DNA of 64,000 bases from a virus. The notes under the pieces were generated by a model. That model was not told the origin of the DNA and made no database searches. It saw only the letters and a list, made by a program, of their open reading frames with translations. The stretch spans positions 31,857 to 95,856 of the IMG/VR virus record IMGVR_UViG_3300009128_001633; one strand, given 5' to 3'. The position numbers and the translations under genes were made by a program. Shown one piece after another: positions 31,654 through 53,742 of the stretch (its first letter is position 1; each line of letters opens with the position of its first letter).

Positions 31654-32004
31654 TTATTCCTGAGCTAAATCAAACTCACATGACCAATAATCATCGTTTT
31701 CATTTGGTTTATATACTATTGGAGCCATAAATGTCACATCATAAACTGTATTATCCATTGGATTAGTCCAATCAAAATTCCCAGCAAAGTTAATAGTTGT
31801 TTGCTCAAATGTTTTTAAAGTATTCTTGTCAGCAGTTGGCAATACTTCATATGCAACATGCCACTTCTGTGGGGTTCTTGTATACCTTGCTCTCTTCTGA
31901 ACATATCCAGCTTCAAAAGGAGACCTTATTACAGGATCACTAACAACAGTTTCTTTCCATGCTTTAACAGACGGTTTTTCAGTTAATGTTGGAAAAGTTG
32001 GCAT
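31654..32004 (-). CDS. Distal tail protein (gpM-like)
   Basis: SPFEAGYVQKR...FDWTNP; directly follows the tape measure. Confidence 0.8.
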   Translation of the reverse strand: MPTFPTLTEKPSVKAWKETVVSDPVIRSPFEAGYVQKRARYTRTPQKWHVAYEVLPTADKNTLKTFEQTTINFAGNFDWTNPMDNTVYDVTFMAPIVYKPNENDDYWSCEFDLAQE

Positions 32005-32006
32005 TT

Positions 32007-35000
32007 TTACCTCGCATTCATTGTATCACGAAACTGCTTTGATGTTTGTTGTTTACTAACAACAACATCTATTATCATACTTTGAAAATCTATTTTTGGA
32101 ATAACATCAGCTGCTTCAAGGTTTTCACCTGTATTATTAATTACATTTACTTGAACATTTTTAATACCAGTCGAACCACCTGACGAACCATTAGATGAAC
32201 TATCTGTACTAACAAGACCACCAGTCTGCATTTTCCTTATTGATTGGCTTCGAAGACGATCAAACAATTCTCTGCCGTAAAAATCAACAGAATCTTTTGG
32301 AATCATATATTCTCCAGGCATTCCCATAATAGGAACAGAATCTTTATTAGGAATTCCACCAACAAGCAAACCACCATATTGATATTGCATAGATATGCCA
32401 GAAGGCATATTACCTAATTGAACAGATGCACCACTCACCGGAGCACTTCCTCCAGTCGGCGATCCAGCCATAGCACCTGATGGCTCGGGACCACTACCTG
32501 CTCCACCTCCTATAGCACTACCGACCATACCTATAACTTGCTGCCAGAAAGCAACTACGATTAATTGCATAACATATTTTTGCATCGCAGACAATATATC
32601 TGTCAATACACTCTCAATTACATCTTTCCAATCCATAGCTGCATCTCTGTTACCAAGAAGCCAATCATTAGTCTTTTTAAATATAGCTTCACCAACCATA
32701 TTTATAGCTTCGTATGTTGTTCCAGTTATAGTCTCAGCATACGTTTTTTGCTCACCAACTAACTGAAAAGTTGCTGCCTTCATTGCATCAGCTATTCCAC
32801 TAAAATGAGTTGTTAAATTAGTAAATTGTTGTAGTTTGAACTCAGCGTCACGCCTAAGAGCTGCTTCCTCCATTGTAAGCCAATCTTCCTGCCATTTTAA
32901 CTTTATATCAAATTTTCTTCTTTGATGATTCTCTTCCATATTTTCAATAATTGTATCCATTTGACTTTTTAATCCAGATCTTCTACCTTCATCACTCTCA
33001 CCCGCAATTCTACCTTCCCATAGCTTCGTCGCTTTAACAATAGCCTGTTGTTGTCTAAATGCTTCTGATTCTAATCTACCGCCTAAGCCTTCACTATAGT
33101 TTCTTGCACCCATTTGAGACTTAGCATATTCACCCCATGTTGTTCTCGCCTTTCCCAACCTTGTTATTTCTTTAGTTAACTCAGCTCTTCTTTCTAGTTC
33201 GTTATTGTATAATATCGTAATATCAATTTCTTCTTTTAAATTACTTATCCTCGTCCTAGTCTGCATTAACATTTTTTCATAATAAAACTCTTGTTCCGAA
33301 TTTAATAAACCTTTTTCACTTAACAACGCAAGTATTCTACCTTCTTGCCACTCATACTCTTCCAGAGATCTTCTTAACTTACGAATCTGACGACTATGAG
33401 TTTCTCTAAGTCTATCCATTTGTTCTTCAATAGTATGATACTCTTTCATCTTATACGTCAAATCATACACTTTATTAGAATGAGTTTCAACCAATTCTGC
33501 AGATGTTTTATTATATTTATGCCAAGCTTCCTTACTAACTATCTTTTTCTGTAATTCATGATATTTCTCCAATTCCTTTACTTGTTTCTCCCACTCTTTT
33601 CTAGCACTTTCAACAGTTGTCTTTTCACCTGTAAAGAAACTTTTAACATCTCCAGGTTTCCTTCTTTTAAGATCCTCAAAAAAAGCTACTTGTTTATCCA
33701 TAAGTTGTTTCCTTTGAAAAGCAGCTCGATCATCAAACTGTAGCAACTTTTCAAATGGACCAACTCCACCTGCTATTCCTTTTATAACATCTAGTTTAGC
33801 TTTCTTTAGACTATCAATTATACCGTCATAAGCTCTTCTCAGAGTTTCAATATTCGAAATTTGACTACGAATATCTCTCTTGGCTTTATTAGCCCTATTC
33901 TGTTCTTCTTTGGCAATTTGCCTTAACAAGCTTTGTTCTTCCTTTGTTAACTTTACAATTTTCTCACCCTCAATACCTATCTTGACTTTTGCACTTTCCT
34001 CTCTGTTACTAAGAATTAATAATGCTGACATATTCTTAGCATAATCAATAACCCATTTATCAGAAGTACCATATTGTAAACGAATTGCTTGCTCCAAATT
34101 TAGTCTAACATCTTTTAACTCACGTCTTAATTGCAATATCCTATTTTTACCTTCATCCTCAGATCTTTCTTGCAAAACTTCCAGTGATCCAAGCGGAGAT
34201 TCAGAAAGTAACCAACCCTCATCAGGTTTTACTATTTCTTTTTTAGAAGCAGTAAAAACTCCCTTTAACGACTTGTTGTATCTAGTAAACTCACCAATAA
34301 TTGTCTTATTAAGATGCTTTATGCGTTTAATATTGTATTTAAGTTCACCAATTCTCACTTCCCAAAACCTTTTCTCTTCTTGAGTTTCCGATTCCAACAT
34401 ATATCTAGTTGTTTGATTAAGTTTAACATTTAATTCTGTATAAACCTTCATTAATTCCCTATTAGTTTTTGTTAACTCTTTAAAAGCCTCATTTCTTTGA
34501 ACCTTTAAAGCTTCTTTAAGATCCTTTTCAGATAATGGTAATCTCTGCCTTAAATTTTTGGATAACCCTTCAACATTAACATCAGAAATCTGACTAAAAA
34601 CATTTTTATAAAACCAGTTTATATCTTTCCGAATTTCCTTCATGCTATCCTTAAAACCAATCATAAACTGCTCTTTCTTCATTAATTTTTCTTCTTTCAA
34701 CAATCTAATTTGCTCACCAAGCTGTTCATTGGTTTTAAGAATTGCTTCGCCTTCAAGATTTCTATAACTTATTAGTTCGGGATATTTACTAACCAACTCA
34801 CTATGAGTCATTGCATTTTCTTTCATTACTTTTTGTATTTCTTTGTATCTATTTATTTTTTTACTAATTTGTATTACTTCATCTTGACCTTGCTTAATGT
34901 TCTCAATAAGTTTCATCGTATTGGAAGATATTTCTGCAGAAGTTTTATTAAAATACTTATATAGCTTATATCCAATAATTCCAGCAGAAGCAGCAGCAAG

Positions 35001-38000
35001 AGCAATTAATCCAGCAACTCCACCTGGAATTGCAGCAGTTAAAGCAACTAGCCCTCTCTTAATCCATACTAATTTTGCAGAAAGAACTCCTAAGCCAATA
35101 TGTTTTACTGCTTTTCCAAAGGTTTTAAACCTCTTTGTTATACCTTTTAATAATTCAGACACAGTCCTATAATCTTCTCCTCCTTTTTTAAACTTGTTTG
35201 AAAAGAATAATAGGAGTTTACTAGCTACAACAAATTGAGCAAAAACAGCCAATATTTGAACAACTGAAGACATGAATTCTCTAGTGAAACTACTGGTTTC
35301 ACTAAATGATCGTCCTATTTGTCCAGAAAAGACAGCTACTTGAGCCATCATCTTAACCAAAGGCTCAAAACCCAATCTAATAAGAGCTTCTAGGGATTGT
35401 TGTAATTGCTTAAAGGCAACATCTGGCTTTTCCAACATAACTCGTGCCATAACCTCAGCAGCATCTTCTGCTTCATATTTCAGCTTATAAATATTATTAT
35501 GCAACTCATCAACATTTCTTATTAGAGTAATAAATGTCTTGGCTCCACGCATTCCCATACGCTCAAATATTGTACCAACTTCTTCAACTGTTAATGAACC
35601 TTGTTTATATTTTTTATTAAGTTTATCCAAAATATCTATTAAATCAAGCGGTCCTTTTAAATTAACTTTAATTCCAAAAGCTTCTGAGAATTGTACTGGT
35701 TGTTTAGCAATTCTACTTAAAACAGTCTGCATAGATCTACCGGCAATACCAGATTTAATTAAATGATCATTGAGAGTTCCTAATAAAGCAGACATCTGGA
35801 GAAAAGTAAGATTACTTTCTTTACCCATAGCCATGAGATATTTATAACCTTCACGTAATTCATTTAACTCAACCTGATGATCTCTAAACGTAGCAACAAC
35901 TATATCATTTATGTATTTAAATTTCATTTGCAATGAAGTAACACCTTCTATGCTATTTTTGAAATTATTATAAACAGCAGCAACCATCTTAGTTGAATCG
36001 GTTACATCACCCTCAGTTGCAACCAACATATTCATAGTGGAATTAAGAGCAGCTAAATTCTCCTCAGCAGTTAATCCAGCACTACCTAATTGGTAAAGAA
36101 CCTCACCAACATAATCAGCTCCTTCACCAAACTTAATCATTGCAGTAACACCTTCTGTCTCGTATCTTTTTAATACTCCAGCAGTAGTTTCAAACTCAGA
36201 CCTTGCTGTTCTCATTGCTCTCGCCATCTGGTGTTCAACTTCTATTACAGAACCTAAAGCTTCTTTGAATCCACGAATGGCACCAAACATAACACCATAT
36301 CCTAGAACCCATGCAGCTTGAGATTTCATCATGTCTTTGAAACCTCTTAGTTGCGTACGAATTGTTCCACGAAAAGCTTCAGCAGTACGGTCAAGTTCTC
36401 TACGTTCTTTCATCTGTAACTTAGACAAATCCTGCTCATACTTTCTTCTTTCTTGAGCAACTATCTGCAGCCTTCTTCCAACAGATTTTAAAGCTTGTTC
36501 CTCATTTCTGTACTGTGTTGTTCCTTTCTTGCCCTGCATTTCCAACTTGGCAATTTTATCCAGATGCTGATCCATAATTGCATTTAATCCAGCTTCTGTA
36601 CTTTTTAACTTATTAATGTTATCGGACAAAACTCTCATACCAGAATTAAGCCTAACAATGCCCTGTCCCCATTTATCTGCATCAACACCAACAGCCTTAA
36701 AACGTAACCTCAATTCTCTTGTTAGTTCACTAATCTTCCTTTGATTTGTCTCTAAATCAAGAAATTCTTTACGATTATGAGCAACGGCTTGTGAGAGAAC
36801 TTGCATTGTTTTAGAAACATTGTTCGCACCATCAGCTAATCTTCTTAATTCCTTATCTTCTCTAACAACAACATCAACTGACTCTTTTAAATCAGAAGTG
36901 AGCTTATCTGTCTTATCGCTCACTTTTTCTTCTCCACGAACTACTCGTGACAACGTTTTCACAAATTTATCATGCTCACCTCTTAAACGCTGAGATTCAC
37001 CCTTAGTTTTATTCATCTCTCTAGCCACTCTTTGGAGTTCCATGGCCCTTTCTTTCTCAACTCCAGAAACGGACTTACTAAGTTCTTTTGTTCTTTGAAT
37101 TTCATCTTCTGTGAGAACCCCGCCACCCGCTAACTTCTCTCTATATCCTTCTTGAACTTTTCCCTCAAATTTAGTTATACCTCCAGCACGTCTTTGTAAT
37201 TCAGCAAATCTAGAATCTAATGCAATAGCTTCTTTTAATTTATTATCATATAATGTTAATTGCTTTATTAGATTTTCAGTATGAGCAGCTTTTTTAGTTT
37301 GTGCATTATCTGCAGAAGATTCAGCAGAAACATAGTTACTCATTGTAGCAGATAAATCATTAATCATCTTATCATACTGAGTCATTTTAACTTTAGTTAA
37401 ATTAACACTTTGACCTAACATTTGTTGTTTCAAATAAGTTTGTGTTAAAGCTTGATCATACTGACTAAGAGCAACCACTGAATCACTTATTGCTCCTCTA
37501 CCTTTTAATGTTCTATCCCAAACAAGACTAGTAAATGGAGTTCCACCTCCTCCACCAGAAGGTGGTGTTCCAGCAGGAGGTACTCCTCCTGCTCCTCCAC
37601 GTCCAGATGCTGTTATTATTCCTTTCTTAAAGGCATCCTTTTGTTTTATTAAACTATTGATTTGTCTTTCACTATTCAACTCTCTATTTTGTAATTCAGC
37701 TATTTCTTTATCTTGTGCTAATATCCTTTCATTTGTTTCTCTTTCTTTTTGTTTCTCTGCAACATATTGCTTTTGATCTTCCAATATTTGCTTACCGGAA
37801 GCAAGTTCTTTAGACCTTATATCTGTTTCAGAAACACCAAAACCAGTCTCAGATAAAGAACTTTTCCTTGTGGAATATGTAAAAGACCCAACGCCACCCT
37901 TTCCCCAACCCATCGGAATCATTTTCTCACGACCAAGCTGTAATGAATATGGCATAGCCTGACCACGAGCATATCTTGGATCTGCCATTCCTGTTTTATA

Positions 38001-39725
38001 ATCTATGTTAGCAATATTCCCAGCTATTTCGAGAACTAAATCTGCCTTTCCTGCTAACACCATGCCGTATCTATTTATATCAGCCATAAAAGCCTTAAAC
38101 TCTACAGATTCTTCACCAACAGCTTCTCTGACTTTGCGGATACGCTCATCCATATATTTCTGAGCGTCTTTTTGTAGAATTTGCGGTAGTTTTCTTGATA
38201 CTTGAACTGCTCCAGTTTTTGCATCAACTGCTCCAGGTTCAGCTATTTGTAATGGAGCCAAAGTTTTTTCAACTTCAACACCCATACTCCTCAACATATG
38301 CTTATATTTCTTTTCTACACTACCACCTTGTTTTCTGGCAAGTTCTAAAACCATACTATCAATCCTACCAAAAATACTGCCAGGACCAACAAATGATTTT
38401 TCTATATCTCTTCTGAGATTAGCAGCAGCTCTTCCTATGGACTGTAATATTTTTGGATCTGCTACTTGTTCTTTGCTAAGAAGCCTTGTAGCCATTTTTG
38501 TAAACTGACCTTCAGCTTTTTCAGCTTCTTGTATCATTCTACTTTTATGCCCACCAGTCTCATACCCTTTTCCAGCTATAAACTTGCCAAGACCTCCAGT
38601 TGCACCTATTTTCTTTACAAATTGTTCTGAAAACTCATGAAATGCAGTTCCACCCGCCATTGCAATTCCAGTTTGTATGCCCTTAGCACCTTCACCCCAT
38701 TTTTTACCAGAAAACAATGACCCTTCCATTGAACCAGTTACAATCCCCGCTGTACCCATCTTAGACTTTTGTATATCGGCAGCAAATTTTCTAACCCATT
38801 TATCAGGATGTTTTGCCCACTCTTCAAGATATTTCTGTATTCGTAAATTACTACCTTGTATGGATTCCCTTATTCTACTTACAGCTTCTTTTGGACCAAA
38901 TTCTCCACCGGCAGATGTATCTTTTATCGCACCTTCTAATGACTTGTATATTTTTTCAGCACCACTACCCTTCTTCCTTGGATCCCAACCCATAATAGAC
39001 ATGTTAGTTACAATTCTACCATAGTCGGGACCACTACCTGCTCCACCAGTAGTTCCACCTCTGGGACCCCATCCAGCAGAACCCATAACGCCACCAACCA
39101 TTCTGGCAGATCCTGCCTGAGCACTTGTGCTTCCTAAAGCAACTGTCATAGAAGTTATTGCATTAGAAATGGCAATTATATCGTCCTTCATCGTTCTTAT
39201 CTGAGTCAGAGCAGGAACTAATCCACTTGTAGTGTTAACATTAGCCATTTTCTGAAACATATCACCAATTGTCTTAAATTTGTTAACACTACCAGATTCA
39301 CCCATTTGCTTCATAGCACTAGCAATCCTACTAAAGGCCCCAGAAGCACTTTTAACATTTTTGTCAAACTTCTGTAAATGTTCTCCTGTAGCCATTATTG
39401 TTGCTGACGCTTTCGCAAACGCACTTATACCTTCTCCAGCTTGCTTACTAAAAGAAGCTATCTGACCAAAAGACTTTGCTACATCCTGAAAGCCTTTAAA
39501 ATACTGCGTCTTAGTACCAACACGATTCATCTCCTTCATAAACGATATCATCGTGTCTTTTGTTTTCTTTAGTTTAGCATCACTAACTTGACCGAGAGCA
39601 GTATTGAAGTCTTGGACGCCTTTTTTCATCATCTCAATATCTTGTTTAAAATGACCCATTTCTGCACTAAACTTATTAGTCATTTTAACAACAAAATCAA
39701 TCTCTCTATTAACCTTCTTAGCCAT
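32007..39725 (-). CDS. Tape measure protein (2572 aa) with internal nuclease-like domain
   Basis: TP901-type core (YQLGSAG...AGRSMQTVLSRI), long coiled coils, C-terminal GG..G...DSVP...PGEY; lies between the chaperones and distal tail. Confidence 0.93.
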   Translation of the reverse strand: MAKKVNREIDFVVKMTNKFSAEMGHFKQDIEMMKKGVQDFNTALGQVSDAKLKKTKDTMISFMKEMNRVGTKTQYFKGFQDVAKSFGQIASFSKQAGEGISAFAKASATIMATGEHLQKFDKNVKSASGAFSRIASAMKQMGESGSVNKFKTIGDMFQKMANVNTTSGLVPALTQIRTMKDDIIAISNAITSMTVALGSTSAQAGSARMVGGVMGSAGWGPRGGTTGGAGSGPDYGRIVTNMSIMGWDPRKKGSGAEKIYKSLEGAIKDTSAGGEFGPKEAVSRIRESIQGSNLRIQKYLEEWAKHPDKWVRKFAADIQKSKMGTAGIVTGSMEGSLFSGKKWGEGAKGIQTGIAMAGGTAFHEFSEQFVKKIGATGGLGKFIAGKGYETGGHKSRMIQEAEKAEGQFTKMATRLLSKEQVADPKILQSIGRAAANLRRDIEKSFVGPGSIFGRIDSMVLELARKQGGSVEKKYKHMLRSMGVEVEKTLAPLQIAEPGAVDAKTGAVQVSRKLPQILQKDAQKYMDERIRKVREAVGEESVEFKAFMADINRYGMVLAGKADLVLEIAGNIANIDYKTGMADPRYARGQAMPYSLQLGREKMIPMGWGKGGVGSFTYSTRKSSLSETGFGVSETDIRSKELASGKQILEDQKQYVAEKQKERETNERILAQDKEIAELQNRELNSERQINSLIKQKDAFKKGIITASGRGGAGGVPPAGTPPSGGGGGTPFTSLVWDRTLKGRGAISDSVVALSQYDQALTQTYLKQQMLGQSVNLTKVKMTQYDKMINDLSATMSNYVSAESSADNAQTKKAAHTENLIKQLTLYDNKLKEAIALDSRFAELQRRAGGITKFEGKVQEGYREKLAGGGVLTEDEIQRTKELSKSVSGVEKERAMELQRVAREMNKTKGESQRLRGEHDKFVKTLSRVVRGEEKVSDKTDKLTSDLKESVDVVVREDKELRRLADGANNVSKTMQVLSQAVAHNRKEFLDLETNQRKISELTRELRLRFKAVGVDADKWGQGIVRLNSGMRVLSDNINKLKSTEAGLNAIMDQHLDKIAKLEMQGKKGTTQYRNEEQALKSVGRRLQIVAQERRKYEQDLSKLQMKERRELDRTAEAFRGTIRTQLRGFKDMMKSQAAWVLGYGVMFGAIRGFKEALGSVIEVEHQMARAMRTARSEFETTAGVLKRYETEGVTAMIKFGEGADYVGEVLYQLGSAGLTAEENLAALNSTMNMLVATEGDVTDSTKMVAAVYNNFKNSIEGVTSLQMKFKYINDIVVATFRDHQVELNELREGYKYLMAMGKESNLTFLQMSALLGTLNDHLIKSGIAGRSMQTVLSRIAKQPVQFSEAFGIKVNLKGPLDLIDILDKLNKKYKQGSLTVEEVGTIFERMGMRGAKTFITLIRNVDELHNNIYKLKYEAEDAAEVMARVMLEKPDVAFKQLQQSLEALIRLGFEPLVKMMAQVAVFSGQIGRSFSETSSFTREFMSSVVQILAVFAQFVVASKLLLFFSNKFKKGGEDYRTVSELLKGITKRFKTFGKAVKHIGLGVLSAKLVWIKRGLVALTAAIPGGVAGLIALAAASAGIIGYKLYKYFNKTSAEISSNTMKLIENIKQGQDEVIQISKKINRYKEIQKVMKENAMTHSELVSKYPELISYRNLEGEAILKTNEQLGEQIRLLKEEKLMKKEQFMIGFKDSMKEIRKDINWFYKNVFSQISDVNVEGLSKNLRQRLPLSEKDLKEALKVQRNEAFKELTKTNRELMKVYTELNVKLNQTTRYMLESETQEEKRFWEVRIGELKYNIKRIKHLNKTIIGEFTRYNKSLKGVFTASKKEIVKPDEGWLLSESPLGSLEVLQERSEDEGKNRILQLRRELKDVRLNLEQAIRLQYGTSDKWVIDYAKNMSALLILSNREESAKVKIGIEGEKIVKLTKEEQSLLRQIAKEEQNRANKAKRDIRSQISNIETLRRAYDGIIDSLKKAKLDVIKGIAGGVGPFEKLLQFDDRAAFQRKQLMDKQVAFFEDLKRRKPGDVKSFFTGEKTTVESARKEWEKQVKELEKYHELQKKIVSKEAWHKYNKTSAELVETHSNKVYDLTYKMKEYHTIEEQMDRLRETHSRQIRKLRRSLEEYEWQEGRILALLSEKGLLNSEQEFYYEKMLMQTRTRISNLKEEIDITILYNNELERRAELTKEITRLGKARTTWGEYAKSQMGARNYSEGLGGRLESEAFRQQQAIVKATKLWEGRIAGESDEGRRSGLKSQMDTIIENMEENHQRRKFDIKLKWQEDWLTMEEAALRRDAEFKLQQFTNLTTHFSGIADAMKAATFQLVGEQKTYAETITGTTYEAINMVGEAIFKKTNDWLLGNRDAAMDWKDVIESVLTDILSAMQKYVMQLIVVAFWQQVIGMVGSAIGGGAGSGPEPSGAMAGSPTGGSAPVSGASVQLGNMPSGISMQYQYGGLLVGGIPNKDSVPIMGMPGEYMIPKDSVDFYGRELFDRLRSQSIRKMQTGGLVSTDSSSNGSSGGSTGIKNVQVNVINNTGENLEAADVIPKIDFQSMIIDVVVSKQQTSKQFRDTMNAR

Positions 39726-39727
39726 TT

Positions 39728-40540
39728 CTACCTCTTACCAGTATTCTTCTTGGTCTTAGCGTCGGCCTCTTTTTTTAATCTATCCATTTCTTCCTTCAAC
39801 ATTGCATTCTGCTCTGACAAAACTATCGCCCTAACAACATAGAAAAAATTTGATTGTTCTAACGCTCCTTCTTTGAATGGTAATGACTTTGAATTATCAA
39901 TGTAATTTATTAAATTGGTTAACTTTATTGATCTTGAAGTTAACAATCCCAGAGGACATCTTGTTACGAAATCATTGTTTCTATTACTGAACCTAAATTT
40001 GAATTTCAATCTTTTTTTAACTCCACACGCACTACAAGTATCATCATTATTGTTTTCTTGACAAGATGGACATATCCAAGTTAAAGCACCATCACAATTA
40101 CGAGATTTAAACATTTTATGATCAACGCAATATTCACAATCCCATTGATATGCTTTATCAGCTCTACTCAGCCAATCAGACCATCTTGCTATTAACCTCA
40201 ATTCACTTGCTAAATCATCATCAACTTCAGATAGTTCCATTATTTTTTCAGCAAGTTCCTGTTGATAATGTGGGGAAATAGCACTAAAATTCTCCACATT
40301 AAATGGGATAACTTCACCATTTTCAAAGGCAAAGTTATCCCATCCGACTAGACCATACATGAGAACCCTTAGTATGAAATTACCAGAAAAACGAGGATGA
40401 AGTTCCTCACAAGAACGATATCCCAACACCGTTAACGGCCTGAGAATAAACGAAGTGGAAGACCCATTATTTCTGTCATTCTTACATATATAAGAAAAGA
40501 CAGTTTTTGGGTCTAGTCTTAGCATTACCGAATTTTCCAT
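39728..40540 (-). CDS. Tail assembly chaperone GT-like (G-domain copy + Cys-rich domain)
   Basis: N-half homologous to 40561-40917; CEYC, CPSC, CSAC; GALEQS motif. Confidence 0.7.
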   Translation of the reverse strand: MENSVMLRLDPKTVFSYICKNDRNNGSSTSFILRPLTVLGYRSCEELHPRFSGNFILRVLMYGLVGWDNFAFENGEVIPFNVENFSAISPHYQQELAEKIMELSEVDDDLASELRLIARWSDWLSRADKAYQWDCEYCVDHKMFKSRNCDGALTWICPSCQENNNDDTCSACGVKKRLKFKFRFSNRNNDFVTRCPLGLLTSRSIKLTNLINYIDNSKSLPFKEGALEQSNFFYVVRAIVLSEQNAMLKEEMDRLKKEADAKTKKNTGKR

Positions 40541-40560
40541 AATACATTCCTACTGCTATG

Positions 40561-40917
40561 TTAAATTTCATCTTCTTCTATACCTCTGATATAGTTAGCG
40601 ATTTCATCTCTCTCAGCAGGAGGAATGCAAGAAAAATTCTCAACATTAAATTCTATTTTCTCACCTGTATCTGCATAAACAAAATTTTTCCAACCTAACA
40701 GACCTTTCTTTAATGCCATCAGAGCTGACGATCCAGTAAGAAATTTTTCTCTTCTAGCATTACCTATGCCTGTCACATTAAACATTGCATCCCTAATTTC
40801 AGCTTGCTCATCAGCAGTTAAATACCTGACTTCAAAAGCTGTTCTATCGGCCTTTGGTGACTTTCTATCGGCCTTACAAACATACTCATGTGGTTTATCA
40901 AACCTTATACCTTTCAT
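40561..40917 (-). CDS. Tail assembly chaperone G
   Basis: Start taken at MKGIRF after GGAGG; GLLGWKNF; lies between tube and tape measure. Confidence 0.75.
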   Translation of the reverse strand: MKGIRFDKPHEYVCKADRKSPKADRTAFEVRYLTADEQAEIRDAMFNVTGIGNARREKFLTGSSALMALKKGLLGWKNFVYADTGEKIEFNVENFSCIPPAERDEIANYIRGIEEDEI

Positions 40918-41178
40918 AATGAATTTTACCTCCTTCTGTTTTAATAGATTTAAAATAATCCTATTGCAAATTATTAGTATATATCCAAATTTCCGCTGTC
41001 TAAACCTTGAGTAAGCAATCCAATCCAATATACGAATAGTAGCAAGGTTAATGAATATGTAGGAGACTAACGGAAACCAAAACATACAAATTGCTAGTCT
41101 TATCGCCCTCCAATCTATTAACAGTAGAAAGAAGATCAAGACTATTATTAAATTTAAACTATAATCGACCATTTTGGC

Positions 41179-51266: not shown

Positions 51267-51512
51267 TCACTCTGAGCAAAAACCAAGACATTTACCATCA
51301 GCATCAAGATGCACATCCATTCCCTGACAAACATAAATGTCAAACTCATCGATTTTCTTATTCCATTTGCAATCATTGTTATCACAGGTCATGGAAACTT
51401 TACCTAATTTACAAAAACCACCTTTCATCCAATGTGCGCACATCTTAGCTTGACAAACATACTTGCCATCGACCTTTTCCCAAGTACATTCTGAACTATC
51501 ATCACTCATCAT
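51267..51512 (-). CDS. Cys-rich small protein
   Basis: Nine Cys in 81 aa; overlaps the portal stop. Confidence 0.6.
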   Translation of the reverse strand: MMSDDSSECTWEKVDGKYVCQAKMCAHWMKGGFCKLGKVSMTCDNNDCKWNKKIDEFDIYVCQGMDVHLDADGKCLGFCSE

Positions 51513-53742
51513 TGCCCTCCTCAGTAAGTTTTTTCAGCAAATACACTTGAATAAAATGTTTATGCTCACCATTCTCATCTTCTTCAACGTCACCTTCCGT
51601 ACTATAGGTATCCATTACAGTTAAATTGTTAACAACAAATGTATCCTTGAGTTCAGCAGAATCAAAATTAACCTCAACAGTATCTTCATCACCATAATAT
51701 TCTGTCTTTTCATACATAAAGACCAGAACAATACCACCTTCTTTAGTAACTCTACTTATTTCACCAAAACTTTTATCCATATTAGTAGAATGAAGTACAG
51801 AAAGTGAATACACTAGATCAAACTCCTCATCATCAAACTCTAAATTTTCTGCATCACCGACCATATACTCAACATTTTCATGGTTATTACTCTTTATAGC
51901 AGCATCTATGGCAACAGGAGTTATATCTATAGATATAACTTTATATCCACTTTCACCAAAATATTTACTATCTCTGCCATTACCACACCCTATTTCTAAT
52001 ATATTCCCTTTTGTTTTATTAACTTTTTCATTAGCTATTAAAACCTCTGCCAAATCAGAATGTTCATCAGAATCAGCCCAATGGACTTCACCAGACTTAT
52101 ATGCATCTAACCATCCTTTTTTATCTATATCTTTAAATTTAAGAATCTTATCATTCTTAACATTCCAAACCCTTTCTGATTTCTTAACAGGTTCACGCTT
52201 CACTTCTTTAGCAGCAGGTTTACGTTTTACTTCTTTTTCCTCCTTTTCTTTTTTTGGAGTTTCCTTAGGAGAGACATTTGGATCAATGCCAGCACCAGAA
52301 TTTTCATACTCTTCTTCTACTGGAATTATCGGAATACCCAAAACATCACTCATTTGCTTGATACTTGGCATCACTGTAGGTATAACTCCGGCCTTCATCC
52401 AAGTATTCATGTTCTGAATAATTGATACCATTATTTCCTTAAGAATACGCCTCCTATCATATTGTATTTTTTCAATTTTAACACGACATGGGACAATTTT
52501 CTTTGGATTAAAGTTAAATTGAACAATAGGTGGTATCAATTGAGCATTAACCGAATCAGCTAATTCGCTAGCCAAACCCTCTTCACTTAGCAAAAAAATC
52601 TCAGCATGAGAAGAAGCCATACTGAAGCTACCAGTTGAAAGATCTTGCGTCATAACTCTTTCTGGAGTTAACAAACCTCTTAATATTTGAGCATTTAAAT
52701 GATTAAGTGCATTTACAAACATTTCACCACGACGATCATCTGCCAAATACTCTATTGCCCACTGATTACCACCTTCCCTATCAGCTTCATACGGTAAAGT
52801 AACTGTACTATTTTCCAACAAATTTTGCGAGATTCTTAATGCTATTTCAGAATTATCATATTCAGTACCATCCAACGTAACACCACCACCTATTGGATGA
52901 GTAACAACAGTGGCAGGACTTCCCTTCCTCTCAAAATATCTCAACATAAACTGTGTTAAGACCTCTTTCCAATACCATGATTTATAGGCAGCTTTCAAAC
53001 GAGCATTACCAAAAAAGTTACCAAATTCGTCGCCAACTGTAAATAACAAACATTTCTCAGCATCTAATTTGATATTCTGACCACTTATATTCTGAACTAT
53101 TCCAATAAAATCATCCGTCTTACTATCAGTTCTAATTTTAATCGTAGCAGGATAATGTGCTTTGATCTTCTTCCATACTTCTGCCTTACCACTAAAATGG
53201 GTTTTCTTTCTACCATTTGGACTTTGAGAAGATATATCTATGTCTAACAATTCCCATATTATTTCATGACTCGCAAAACCAAAGTCAATTGAAGTCAACA
53301 TAGAAATTATTAGTTTTTTCCATACCCTTGTTAATGCTTCCTTAACAAACTCCCTTATATCAGGATCCTCACATTCTATAGTCCATCCCAATGAAACTAT
53401 TGGCATTTTAATCATTGCTAGACCAATTGCAATCTGGGGATCCGTCTTCATTTTAATATATGTATCAATTGGAATTGTATCTGGATTATAAACACCTATT
53501 GTTTCTGAACCAAAAGCAGCAGCAGTCAAAGGACTACCGTGTCTTGTTACATCCCTATGCATAGCAGTTTTCTTAAACTTAGCTTGTTGAGTGGATAAAT
53601 AAACCCTCATTTCATCACGAACATCTTTAGGCATACCTCTTTGTCTCATTAGAGATATTAACCTTCTACCACCCTCAGGATATGAATGTGCTCTGTAATT
53701 CAAAAAGTTAGGGTCAATTACTCTTGCTATGGTCTGTTTCAT
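51502..53742 (-). CDS. Portal protein (Mu gp29/DUF935-like) fused to C-terminal SAM-dependent methyltransferase
   Basis: MLTSIDFGFASHEIIW...GNFFG..LKAAY..WYWK..FERKGSP...GSFSMASSH...LIPPIVQFNF; then ILEIGCGNGRD...SIDI...GDAE..FDLVYSLSVLH..KEGG. Confidence 0.9.
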   Translation of the reverse strand: MKQTIARVIDPNFLNYRAHSYPEGGRRLISLMRQRGMPKDVRDEMRVYLSTQQAKFKKTAMHRDVTRHGSPLTAAAFGSETIGVYNPDTIPIDTYIKMKTDPQIAIGLAMIKMPIVSLGWTIECEDPDIREFVKEALTRVWKKLIISMLTSIDFGFASHEIIWELLDIDISSQSPNGRKKTHFSGKAEVWKKIKAHYPATIKIRTDSKTDDFIGIVQNISGQNIKLDAEKCLLFTVGDEFGNFFGNARLKAAYKSWYWKEVLTQFMLRYFERKGSPATVVTHPIGGGVTLDGTEYDNSEIALRISQNLLENSTVTLPYEADREGGNQWAIEYLADDRRGEMFVNALNHLNAQILRGLLTPERVMTQDLSTGSFSMASSHAEIFLLSEEGLASELADSVNAQLIPPIVQFNFNPKKIVPCRVKIEKIQYDRRRILKEIMVSIIQNMNTWMKAGVIPTVMPSIKQMSDVLGIPIIPVEEEYENSGAGIDPNVSPKETPKKEKEEKEVKRKPAAKEVKREPVKKSERVWNVKNDKILKFKDIDKKGWLDAYKSGEVHWADSDEHSDLAEVLIANEKVNKTKGNILEIGCGNGRDSKYFGESGYKVISIDITPVAIDAAIKSNNHENVEYMVGDAENLEFDDEEFDLVYSLSVLHSTNMDKSFGEISRVTKEGGIVLVFMYEKTEYYGDEDTVEVNFDSAELKDTFVVNNLTVMDTYSTEGDVEEDENGEHKHFIQVYLLKKLTEEGNDE

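Follow-up and report, generated by a model that had tools for sequence, protein, structure and literature searches.

Tape measure protein gene and its inserted module

We analyzed a 64,000-nucleotide stretch of viral DNA (the window), which covers positions 31,857 to 95,856 of IMG/VR virus record IMGVR_UViG_3300009128_001633; the record itself is 95,856 bp long and 69% complete by CheckV estimate. The subject of this work is one large gene on the minus strand of the window, whose product carries an inserted module between two glycine-rich linkers. Because the open reading frame (ORF) at 32007-39725 matches PF10145 PhageMin_Tail at residues 1196-1375 (Pfam, E = 1e-21), matches six PHROG families named 'tail length tape measure protein', including phrog_28, phrog_167 and phrog_1272, at residues ~880-2310, and is positioned within a lambda-like tail module, it is a phage tail tape measure protein (TMP). 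The core of the inserted module, about residues 335-640, very probably adopts the RecB-family nuclease fold, keeps its active site intact and forms an integral part of the TMP. The relevant features, in window coordinates and TMP residue numbers, are as follows.

32007-39725, minus strand: TMP gene, one open frame of 2,572 codons encoding 2,572 residues
39021-39725, minus strand: N-terminal helical head (residues 1-207) and first Gly-rich linker (residues ~208-235), common to all homologues at ~23% mean identity
37611-39020, minus strand: whole inserted module, residues 236-705, ~470 residues between the Gly-rich linkers; same place in 10 TMP sequences, 9 of them distinct
37806-38723, minus strand: predicted RecB-family PD-(D/E)XK nuclease domain, residues 335-640, from PF12705, an AlphaFold2 model and structural matches
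38637-38651, minus strand: motif I, G359-T360-x-x-H363, in the first long helix; invariant in 10 of 10 sequences and in the P0003 fragment
38268-38270, minus strand: E486 (VEVEK), in the first core strand; invariant Glu
38040-38051, minus strand: motif II, G559-x-x-D562, in the second core strand; invariant
37992-38003, minus strand: motif III, D575-x-K577-T578, in the third core strand; D and K invariant
37947-37961, minus strand: motif IV, Q589-x-x-x-Y593, in the helix after strand 3; Q invariant, Y in 7 of 10
37545-37805, minus strand: C-terminal long helix of the module (residues ~641-705; predicted local distance difference test score (pLDDT) of 70-77 in a four-row AlphaFold2 model) and second Gly/Pro-rich linker (residues ~706-727)

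An initial annotation of this DNA had proposed a RecB/Cas4-like nuclease embedded in the TMP and bracketed by Gly-rich linkers. The motifs that it quoted are all present in the translation of 32007-39725 (minus strand), in the order claimed: GGTAFHEF (residues 358-365, window 38631-38654, for which the earlier figure was 3 nucleotides off), GVEVEK (residues 482-487, window 38265-38280), LAGKADLVLE (residues 557-566), NIDYKTG (residues 573-579, window 37989-38009) and GQAMPY (residues 588-593). Both linkers could also be located, the first, GGTTGGAGSGP, at residues 223-233 and the second, GRGGAGGVPPAGTPPSGGGGG, starting at about residue 707. They are Gly-rich in every homologue, with G227 and G230 invariant in the first and G719 and G726 in the second. 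In the nuclease domain, motif I is separated from the first core strand by a ~120-residue helical insert. The composite pattern G[TS]xxH...GxxD...[DE]xK[TS]...QxxxY occurs once in the real TMP (residues 359-593), compared with 5 occurrences in 20,000 shuffles.

Sequence profiles identify a RecB-family nuclease domain

Using the curated gathering cut-off of Pfam PF12705 PDDEXK_1 (22 bits) as the reference, the protein scored above it in every form searched: 24.2 bits for the whole TMP, 26.7 bits for residues 236-705 (E = 6.7e-6) and 26.3 bits for residues 335-640. A six-frame search of the whole record returned the module, at 26.4 bits, as the sole PF12705 match, and no other PF12705-type nuclease was detectable in the 95.9-kb record or in a complete 140-kb relative. 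Six of the nine family members matched PF12705 individually, with a best E-value of 3.4e-8 (4.7e-10 in another search), and 17 of the 30 nearest clusters in the ESM Atlas carry the same family. In an independent library, the same stretch has weaker matches to phrog_69 'exonuclease' (3e-4) and phrog_298, also an 'exonuclease'. When the family profile was compared with PDB sequences, MGME1 came top with an E-value of only 0.03, with the GxxD, DxKT and QxxxY motifs aligned; phmmer of the module against PDB sequences gave no match, and the profile of a smaller alignment (A2) against the PDB gave only coiled-coil noise from its N-terminal columns. Together with the invariant motifs and the confident model described below, the above-threshold PF12705 score bears out the proposal of a RecB-family PD-(D/E)XK domain embedded in the TMP.

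The 'Cas4-like' part of the label proved too specific. TIGR00372 (Cas4) matches the module with an E-value of 3e-3 and 17.2 bits, against a cut-off of 65, PF01930 was not listed, and there is no cysteine in the modules of any of the ten sequences or anywhere in the 2,572-residue TMP. Cas4 proper was therefore rejected, and the absence of cysteine argues that the domain holds no iron-sulfur (Fe-S) cluster.

The module is conserved in a family of related tape measure proteins

HMMER, run exhaustively over 1.84 billion representatives, returned two relatives, P0002 (a TMP of 2,788 residues) and the truncated P0003 (560 residues), and further relatives were obtained from IMG/VR scans with TMP alignments. 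The module is found in ten TMP sequences, nine of them distinct (the window, P0002, L002, L004, L005, L008, L009, L011, L015 and L017), in an identical position between the same two Gly-rich linkers; loci L006/L014 and L007, which are cut by contig ends on the N-terminal side, were left out of this scoring. No full-length relative without the module was present among those found. The module core of the window is 18-33% identical to those of its relatives (mean 23%), a degree of drift comparable with that of the ruler helices (19-23%), and the PhageMin_Tail core is 55% identical.

Against this background of divergence, the residues that are invariant between the linkers in the alignment of six full TMPs (A5) are exactly G359, T360, H363, E486, G554, G559, D562, D575 and K577. 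The module alignments add Q589 to the invariant residues; Y593 is kept in seven of the ten sequences, with F in its place in L008 and a one-residue shift in L015 and L017. The initial annotation had staked its proposal on two points, conservation of the catalytic residues in homologues and folding of the region as a PD-(D/E)XK domain. On the first, the residues are invariant in eight distinct full homologues. The TMP nuclease is predicted, from its sequence and model, to be catalytically competent.

Among cultured phages there is no close TMP. A tblastn search of the module against 50,697 phage records gave nothing at 1e-5, the matches at E ≤10 being only chance-level 'exonuclease' hits (E 7-8), and the closest TMP of a cultured phage is 28% identical over 37% of the TMP core. 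Pattern scans of genome and metagenome contigs, with one peptide pattern each, found no relative, which is weak evidence. The record of one relative (L016/G002, IMGVR_UViG_3300022677_000027) has 140,126 bp, likely the full genome size of the lineage, and its class is complete, with direct terminal repeats, which may only reflect circular assembly. The TMP module of this relative is the most diverged, with GTLMH and DLKTG present and no PF12705 match.

The predicted fold is a PD-(D/E)XK core

The structure of residues 335-640 was predicted with AlphaFold2 from a nine-row alignment that contained TMP sequences only and no known nuclease. The resulting model has a pLDDT of 87.5 and a predicted template modeling score (pTM) of 0.84; a run on residues 236-705 with a four-row alignment had a pLDDT of 48.5 and was unusable. 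From the N-terminus, the model comprises a long helix (H363), the ~120-residue helical insert, strand 1 (E486), two helices, strand 2 (D562), strand 3 (D575 and K577), a helix (Q589 and Y593) and two more strands. In model numbering, residue 29 of motif I lies in helix 16-41, residue 152 (E486) in strand 148-161, residue 228 of motif II in strand 221-233, residues 241 and 243 of motif III in strand 236-243, and residues 255 and 259 of motif IV in helix 249-267. As modeled, this is a PD-(D/E)XK core of alpha-beta-beta-beta-alpha-beta order with each motif on its expected element. On the second point staked, therefore, the region is confidently predicted to fold, and to fold as PD-(D/E)XK.

A structural search with VIA-align against 48,161 chains supports this assignment. 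Matches to the RecB family are the best over the whole domain, span model residues ~1-299 and include Dna2 (Z = 9.8; 169 residues aligned, root-mean-square deviation 3.5), AdnA (9.6), AddA (9.0), ACE1 (8.3), Cas4 (8.2), MGME1 (7.5), Exo5 (7.2), RecB (7.0) and RecE (6.6), and the unrelated rows interleaved with them match the helical insert alone. The Foldseek lists for the PDB and BFVD likewise consist mostly of RecB, Cas4 and other PD-(D/E)XK exonucleases, and none of the entries is named a tape measure protein. The fold call does not depend on any single score: it is made because sequence profiles, motif placement and structural ranking all agree.

Genomic setting of the tape measure protein gene

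The tail module around the TMP gene has a phrog_290 tail protein and two unnamed ORFs upstream, and phrog_384, phrog_18, phrog_329 and phrog_31 downstream (minor tail proteins and a J-like central fiber of 1,381 residues). Further upstream are the genes for terminase, portal, protease and major head proteins. At locus L002 the gene order is the same as around the TMP of the window.

Several other observations were made at and around the gene. Directly upstream of the TMP, where tail assembly chaperones are expected, 39728-41172 (minus strand) holds ORFs of 203 and 270 residues; a 20-nucleotide gap separates them, so that they do not overlap like a frameshift pair, and neither has a PHROG or NCBIfam family match. 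Near the C-terminus of the TMP is a conserved motif, DSVPIMxMPGEYxIPKDxVDxYG (residues ~2462-2484, window ~32274-32342, minus strand), in one copy; its homologue P0002 carries three tandem-like copies. On the plus strand, a 115-codon ORF at 38677-39024 runs antisense to the nuclease module; it most probably arose by chance within the TMP gene. The portal protein (51502-53742, minus strand) combines phrog_113 (residues 92-489) with a C-terminal methyltransferase-like domain (phrog_22502/4752, residues ~560-740). Outside the window, at G000:C1:8139-8726 of the record, and in two large relatives, L021 and L022, there is a thymidylate-synthase-family ORF of ~400 residues, longer than ordinary ThyA, a family match that cannot separate a synthase from a hydroxymethylase.

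Proposed delivery and target of the nuclease

To consider how such a domain could act, we turned to the tail of 80alpha, in which three TMP N-termini contact the tail completion protein that holds the DNA end and the C-termini lie in the tail tip, and whose TMP is thought to exit with the DNA (10.1101/2024.12.10.627806). By analogy, the N-terminal head of the TMP in the window would be its head-proximal end, and the protein would form a trimer in the tail tube with its C-terminus at the tip and its N-terminus beside the DNA end, giving three nuclease copies per virion. The nuclease would probably be stored in a non-native, extended state, because a folded 300-residue domain would not fit the lumen of the tube. 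During infection the TMP would exit tip-first, and the nuclease module, being ~235 residues from the TMP N-terminus, would be the last part to leave, just ahead of the entering DNA and nearest to it. The nuclease may then refold at or near the entry pore and cut DNA there. Since a RecB-type domain lies near the head-facing end of the TMP with all its active-site residues conserved, the phage probably carries the nuclease into the cell with its DNA, as this analogy suggests. The functional part of the initial annotation, a virion that delivers a nuclease with its DNA for end processing, host-DNA attack or anti-defense, is plausible in the light of other TMPs. Taken as a whole, namely that an Fe-S-free RecB-family nuclease is fixed in the TMP, is delivered with it and cuts DNA after ejection, the proposal is in our judgment moderately probable.

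As to what would be cut, our preferred candidate, held tentatively, is the end of the incoming phage genome itself. It is preferred because the structural relatives RecE, AddA, MGME1 and Dna2 act on ends, because a single event at the pore is well served by three tethered copies, and because the complete 140-kb relative is classed with direct terminal repeats (a class that perhaps reflects only circular assembly). Resection of the genome end could drive annealing or recombination of terminal repeats. Ranked second, and rather unlikely, is host DNA or the DNA of defense systems or rivals, with the phage DNA protected by base modification. In either case the tail would deliver three tethered nuclease copies that act within seconds, before phage gene expression, either to resect the leading end of the phage genome or to destroy unmodified DNA, a scenario that we offer as a speculative possibility. 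Resection of the leading end would start recombination or circularization without host help; alternatively, unmodified host or rival DNA would be destroyed at the entry pore and the phage's own, possibly modified DNA spared.

A number of points weigh against the delivered-nuclease proposal and the fold call beneath it. The members of the family are all known from sequence alone, none being cultured, and we know of no phage, beyond the inference for P23-45, in which the N-terminal part of a TMP has been established to reach the cytoplasm. Unless it is kept inactive, a nuclease next to the DNA end of the phage itself is a danger, and the target that we name is a guess. On the structural side, the Foldseek E-values are weak (best 0.012 for the PDB and 5.6e-4 for BFVD), the VIA-align Z of 9-10 is modestly above helical-bundle noise (Z ~8, from the helical insert only), and the active-site residues were placed by model helix and strand, not by clustering of the seven residues in space. 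Finally, the window's own Pfam match spans motifs II-IV and misses motif I, because of the ~120-residue insert.

Alternative explanations

The domain might instead act in the producer cell, either within unassembled TMP or once proteolysis at the Gly-rich linkers has released it ahead of tail assembly; it could then serve in host DNA breakdown, recombination or replication, and the virion TMP would have no nuclease or only a passenger copy. TMPs are often processed, lambda gpH being an example. TMP fragmentation has also been noted for 80alpha (10.1101/2024.12.10.627806), flexible linkers flank the module, and the phage may rely on the TMP copy, as no second PF12705-type nuclease was found in the record or the complete relative. 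However, the TMP is a late, low-copy structural gene and a poor supply route for a replication or recombination enzyme, excision of the module would sever the conserved N-terminal head from the ruler, and the same architecture is seen in all ten TMP sequences. We therefore consider action in the producer cell improbable.

A second alternative, which we hold to be slightly less probable still, is that the domain is genuine but does not cut: it would cap or plug the phage DNA end against host exonucleases, for example RecBCD, or keep that end attached to the TMP while ejection proceeds. Nuclease folds often serve again as binding domains, and T4 gp2 is an ejected protein that protects DNA ends. 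Another ejected end-protecting protein is gp44 of 80alpha (PMC7290940), and by the 80alpha analogy the domain lies near the DNA-facing end of the TMP. On the other hand, a domain used for binding only would normally lose some catalytic residues, whereas H363, D562, D575, K577 and Q589 have stayed invariant while the rest of the domain drifted to ~23% identity.

A selfish origin of the module, for example as a homing endonuclease or an intein-like element that the phage tolerates without using it, is very improbable. The module has clear-cut boundaries relative to ordinary TMPs, and PD-(D/E)XK homing endonucleases exist; yet Pfam shows none of the Hint, LAGLIDADG, GIY-YIG and HNH signatures in the TMP, every full-length relative found has the module, and a QxxxY motif set of RecB type is typical of end-processing nucleases. 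The module keeps a fixed position throughout the relatives and its divergence matches that of the flanking ruler, which indicates old vertical inheritance. An intein or homing element was rejected on the absence of a splicing or homing family, the fixed site and the in-step divergence. Equally improbable, and rejected as well, is a chance resemblance of a helical or mixed ruler segment carrying short nuclease-like motifs: the motifs are indeed short, the single-sequence E-values modest (1e-5 to 1e-6) and the four-sequence AlphaFold2 run poor (pLDDT 48.5), but the shuffles seldom reproduce the composite motif, six of nine homologues match PF12705 independently, the motif residues are the only invariant ones, and a confident model from an alignment without nuclease sequences finds RecB-family structures as its best matches.

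Implications

TMPs are known as rulers and channel formers, and their extra domains digest the cell wall. TMP enzymatic cargo and RecB-family nucleases are each already known, and for the combination of a nuclease within a TMP we found no paper, full-text literature searches having returned none that describes a nuclease domain inside a TMP. A conserved and intact nuclease at an N-terminal position like that of the P23-45 cargo, in an unrelated marine lineage, suggests a general slot at the TMP's head-facing end for nucleic-acid enzymes, which would act on nucleic acid at the moment of genome entry. If the delivered nuclease is active after ejection, a nuclease step would precede the expression of any phage gene. 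This would bear on the survival and circularization of linear genomes and on how phages meet host defenses at the entry site, as well as on how a folded enzyme is stored and threaded through a 4-nm tube.

Comparison with known systems

Among known nucleases, the domain resembles the Fe-S-free members of the RecB family (AddA, AdnA, the RecB C-terminal domain, MGME1 and RecE), with which it shares the GxxxH/GxxD/DxK(T)/QxxxY motif set, the core fold as modeled and the lack of cysteines. It differs from them in being neither attached to a helicase nor a free enzyme but part of a virion tail protein, and in its ~120-residue helical insert between motif I and the first strand; it is 11-17% identical in sequence to any solved structure. 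Cas4 and the phage Cas4-like exonucleases (TIGR00372, PF01930; 4ic1, 8d3l; ACE1 9iab) belong to the same superfamily and have the same motif order, with Z values of 8.2-8.3, and models of phage 'Cas4 family exonuclease' are among the BFVD matches. Unlike Cas4, the domain in the window has no cysteines or 4Fe-4S cluster and no CRISPR context.

Among known tape measure proteins, T5 Pb2 and others carry muralytic cargo. The TMP of mycobacteriophage TM4 does so in the form of an Rpf-like motif (PMC1796659). In these proteins, likewise, the ruler holds a catalytic domain that is delivered at infection; their targets are peptidoglycan in the envelope, whereas the domain in the window is a predicted nucleic-acid enzyme and lies toward the head, at the other end of the TMP. 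The TMP of Thermus phage P23-45, gp96, has as its N-terminal part a virion RNA polymerase that transcribes the pre-early genes, and the report makes no mention of a nuclease in this TMP (PMC10770324). Like gp96, the TMP in the window has a nucleic-acid enzyme, here a predicted one, in its N-terminal part, which would place it in the virion; the cargo in gp96 is an RNA polymerase. The TMP in the window has no DxDxD motif anywhere and no RNA polymerase family in Pfam or PHROGs, and only 235 residues precede its nuclease module; it is a nuclease-only cargo form from a distinct, uncultured marine lineage of siphovirus type. P23-45 is the only published precedent that we found for non-muralytic TMP cargo, and its TMP-fused RNA polymerase is the closest precedent for a TMP that carries a nuclease.

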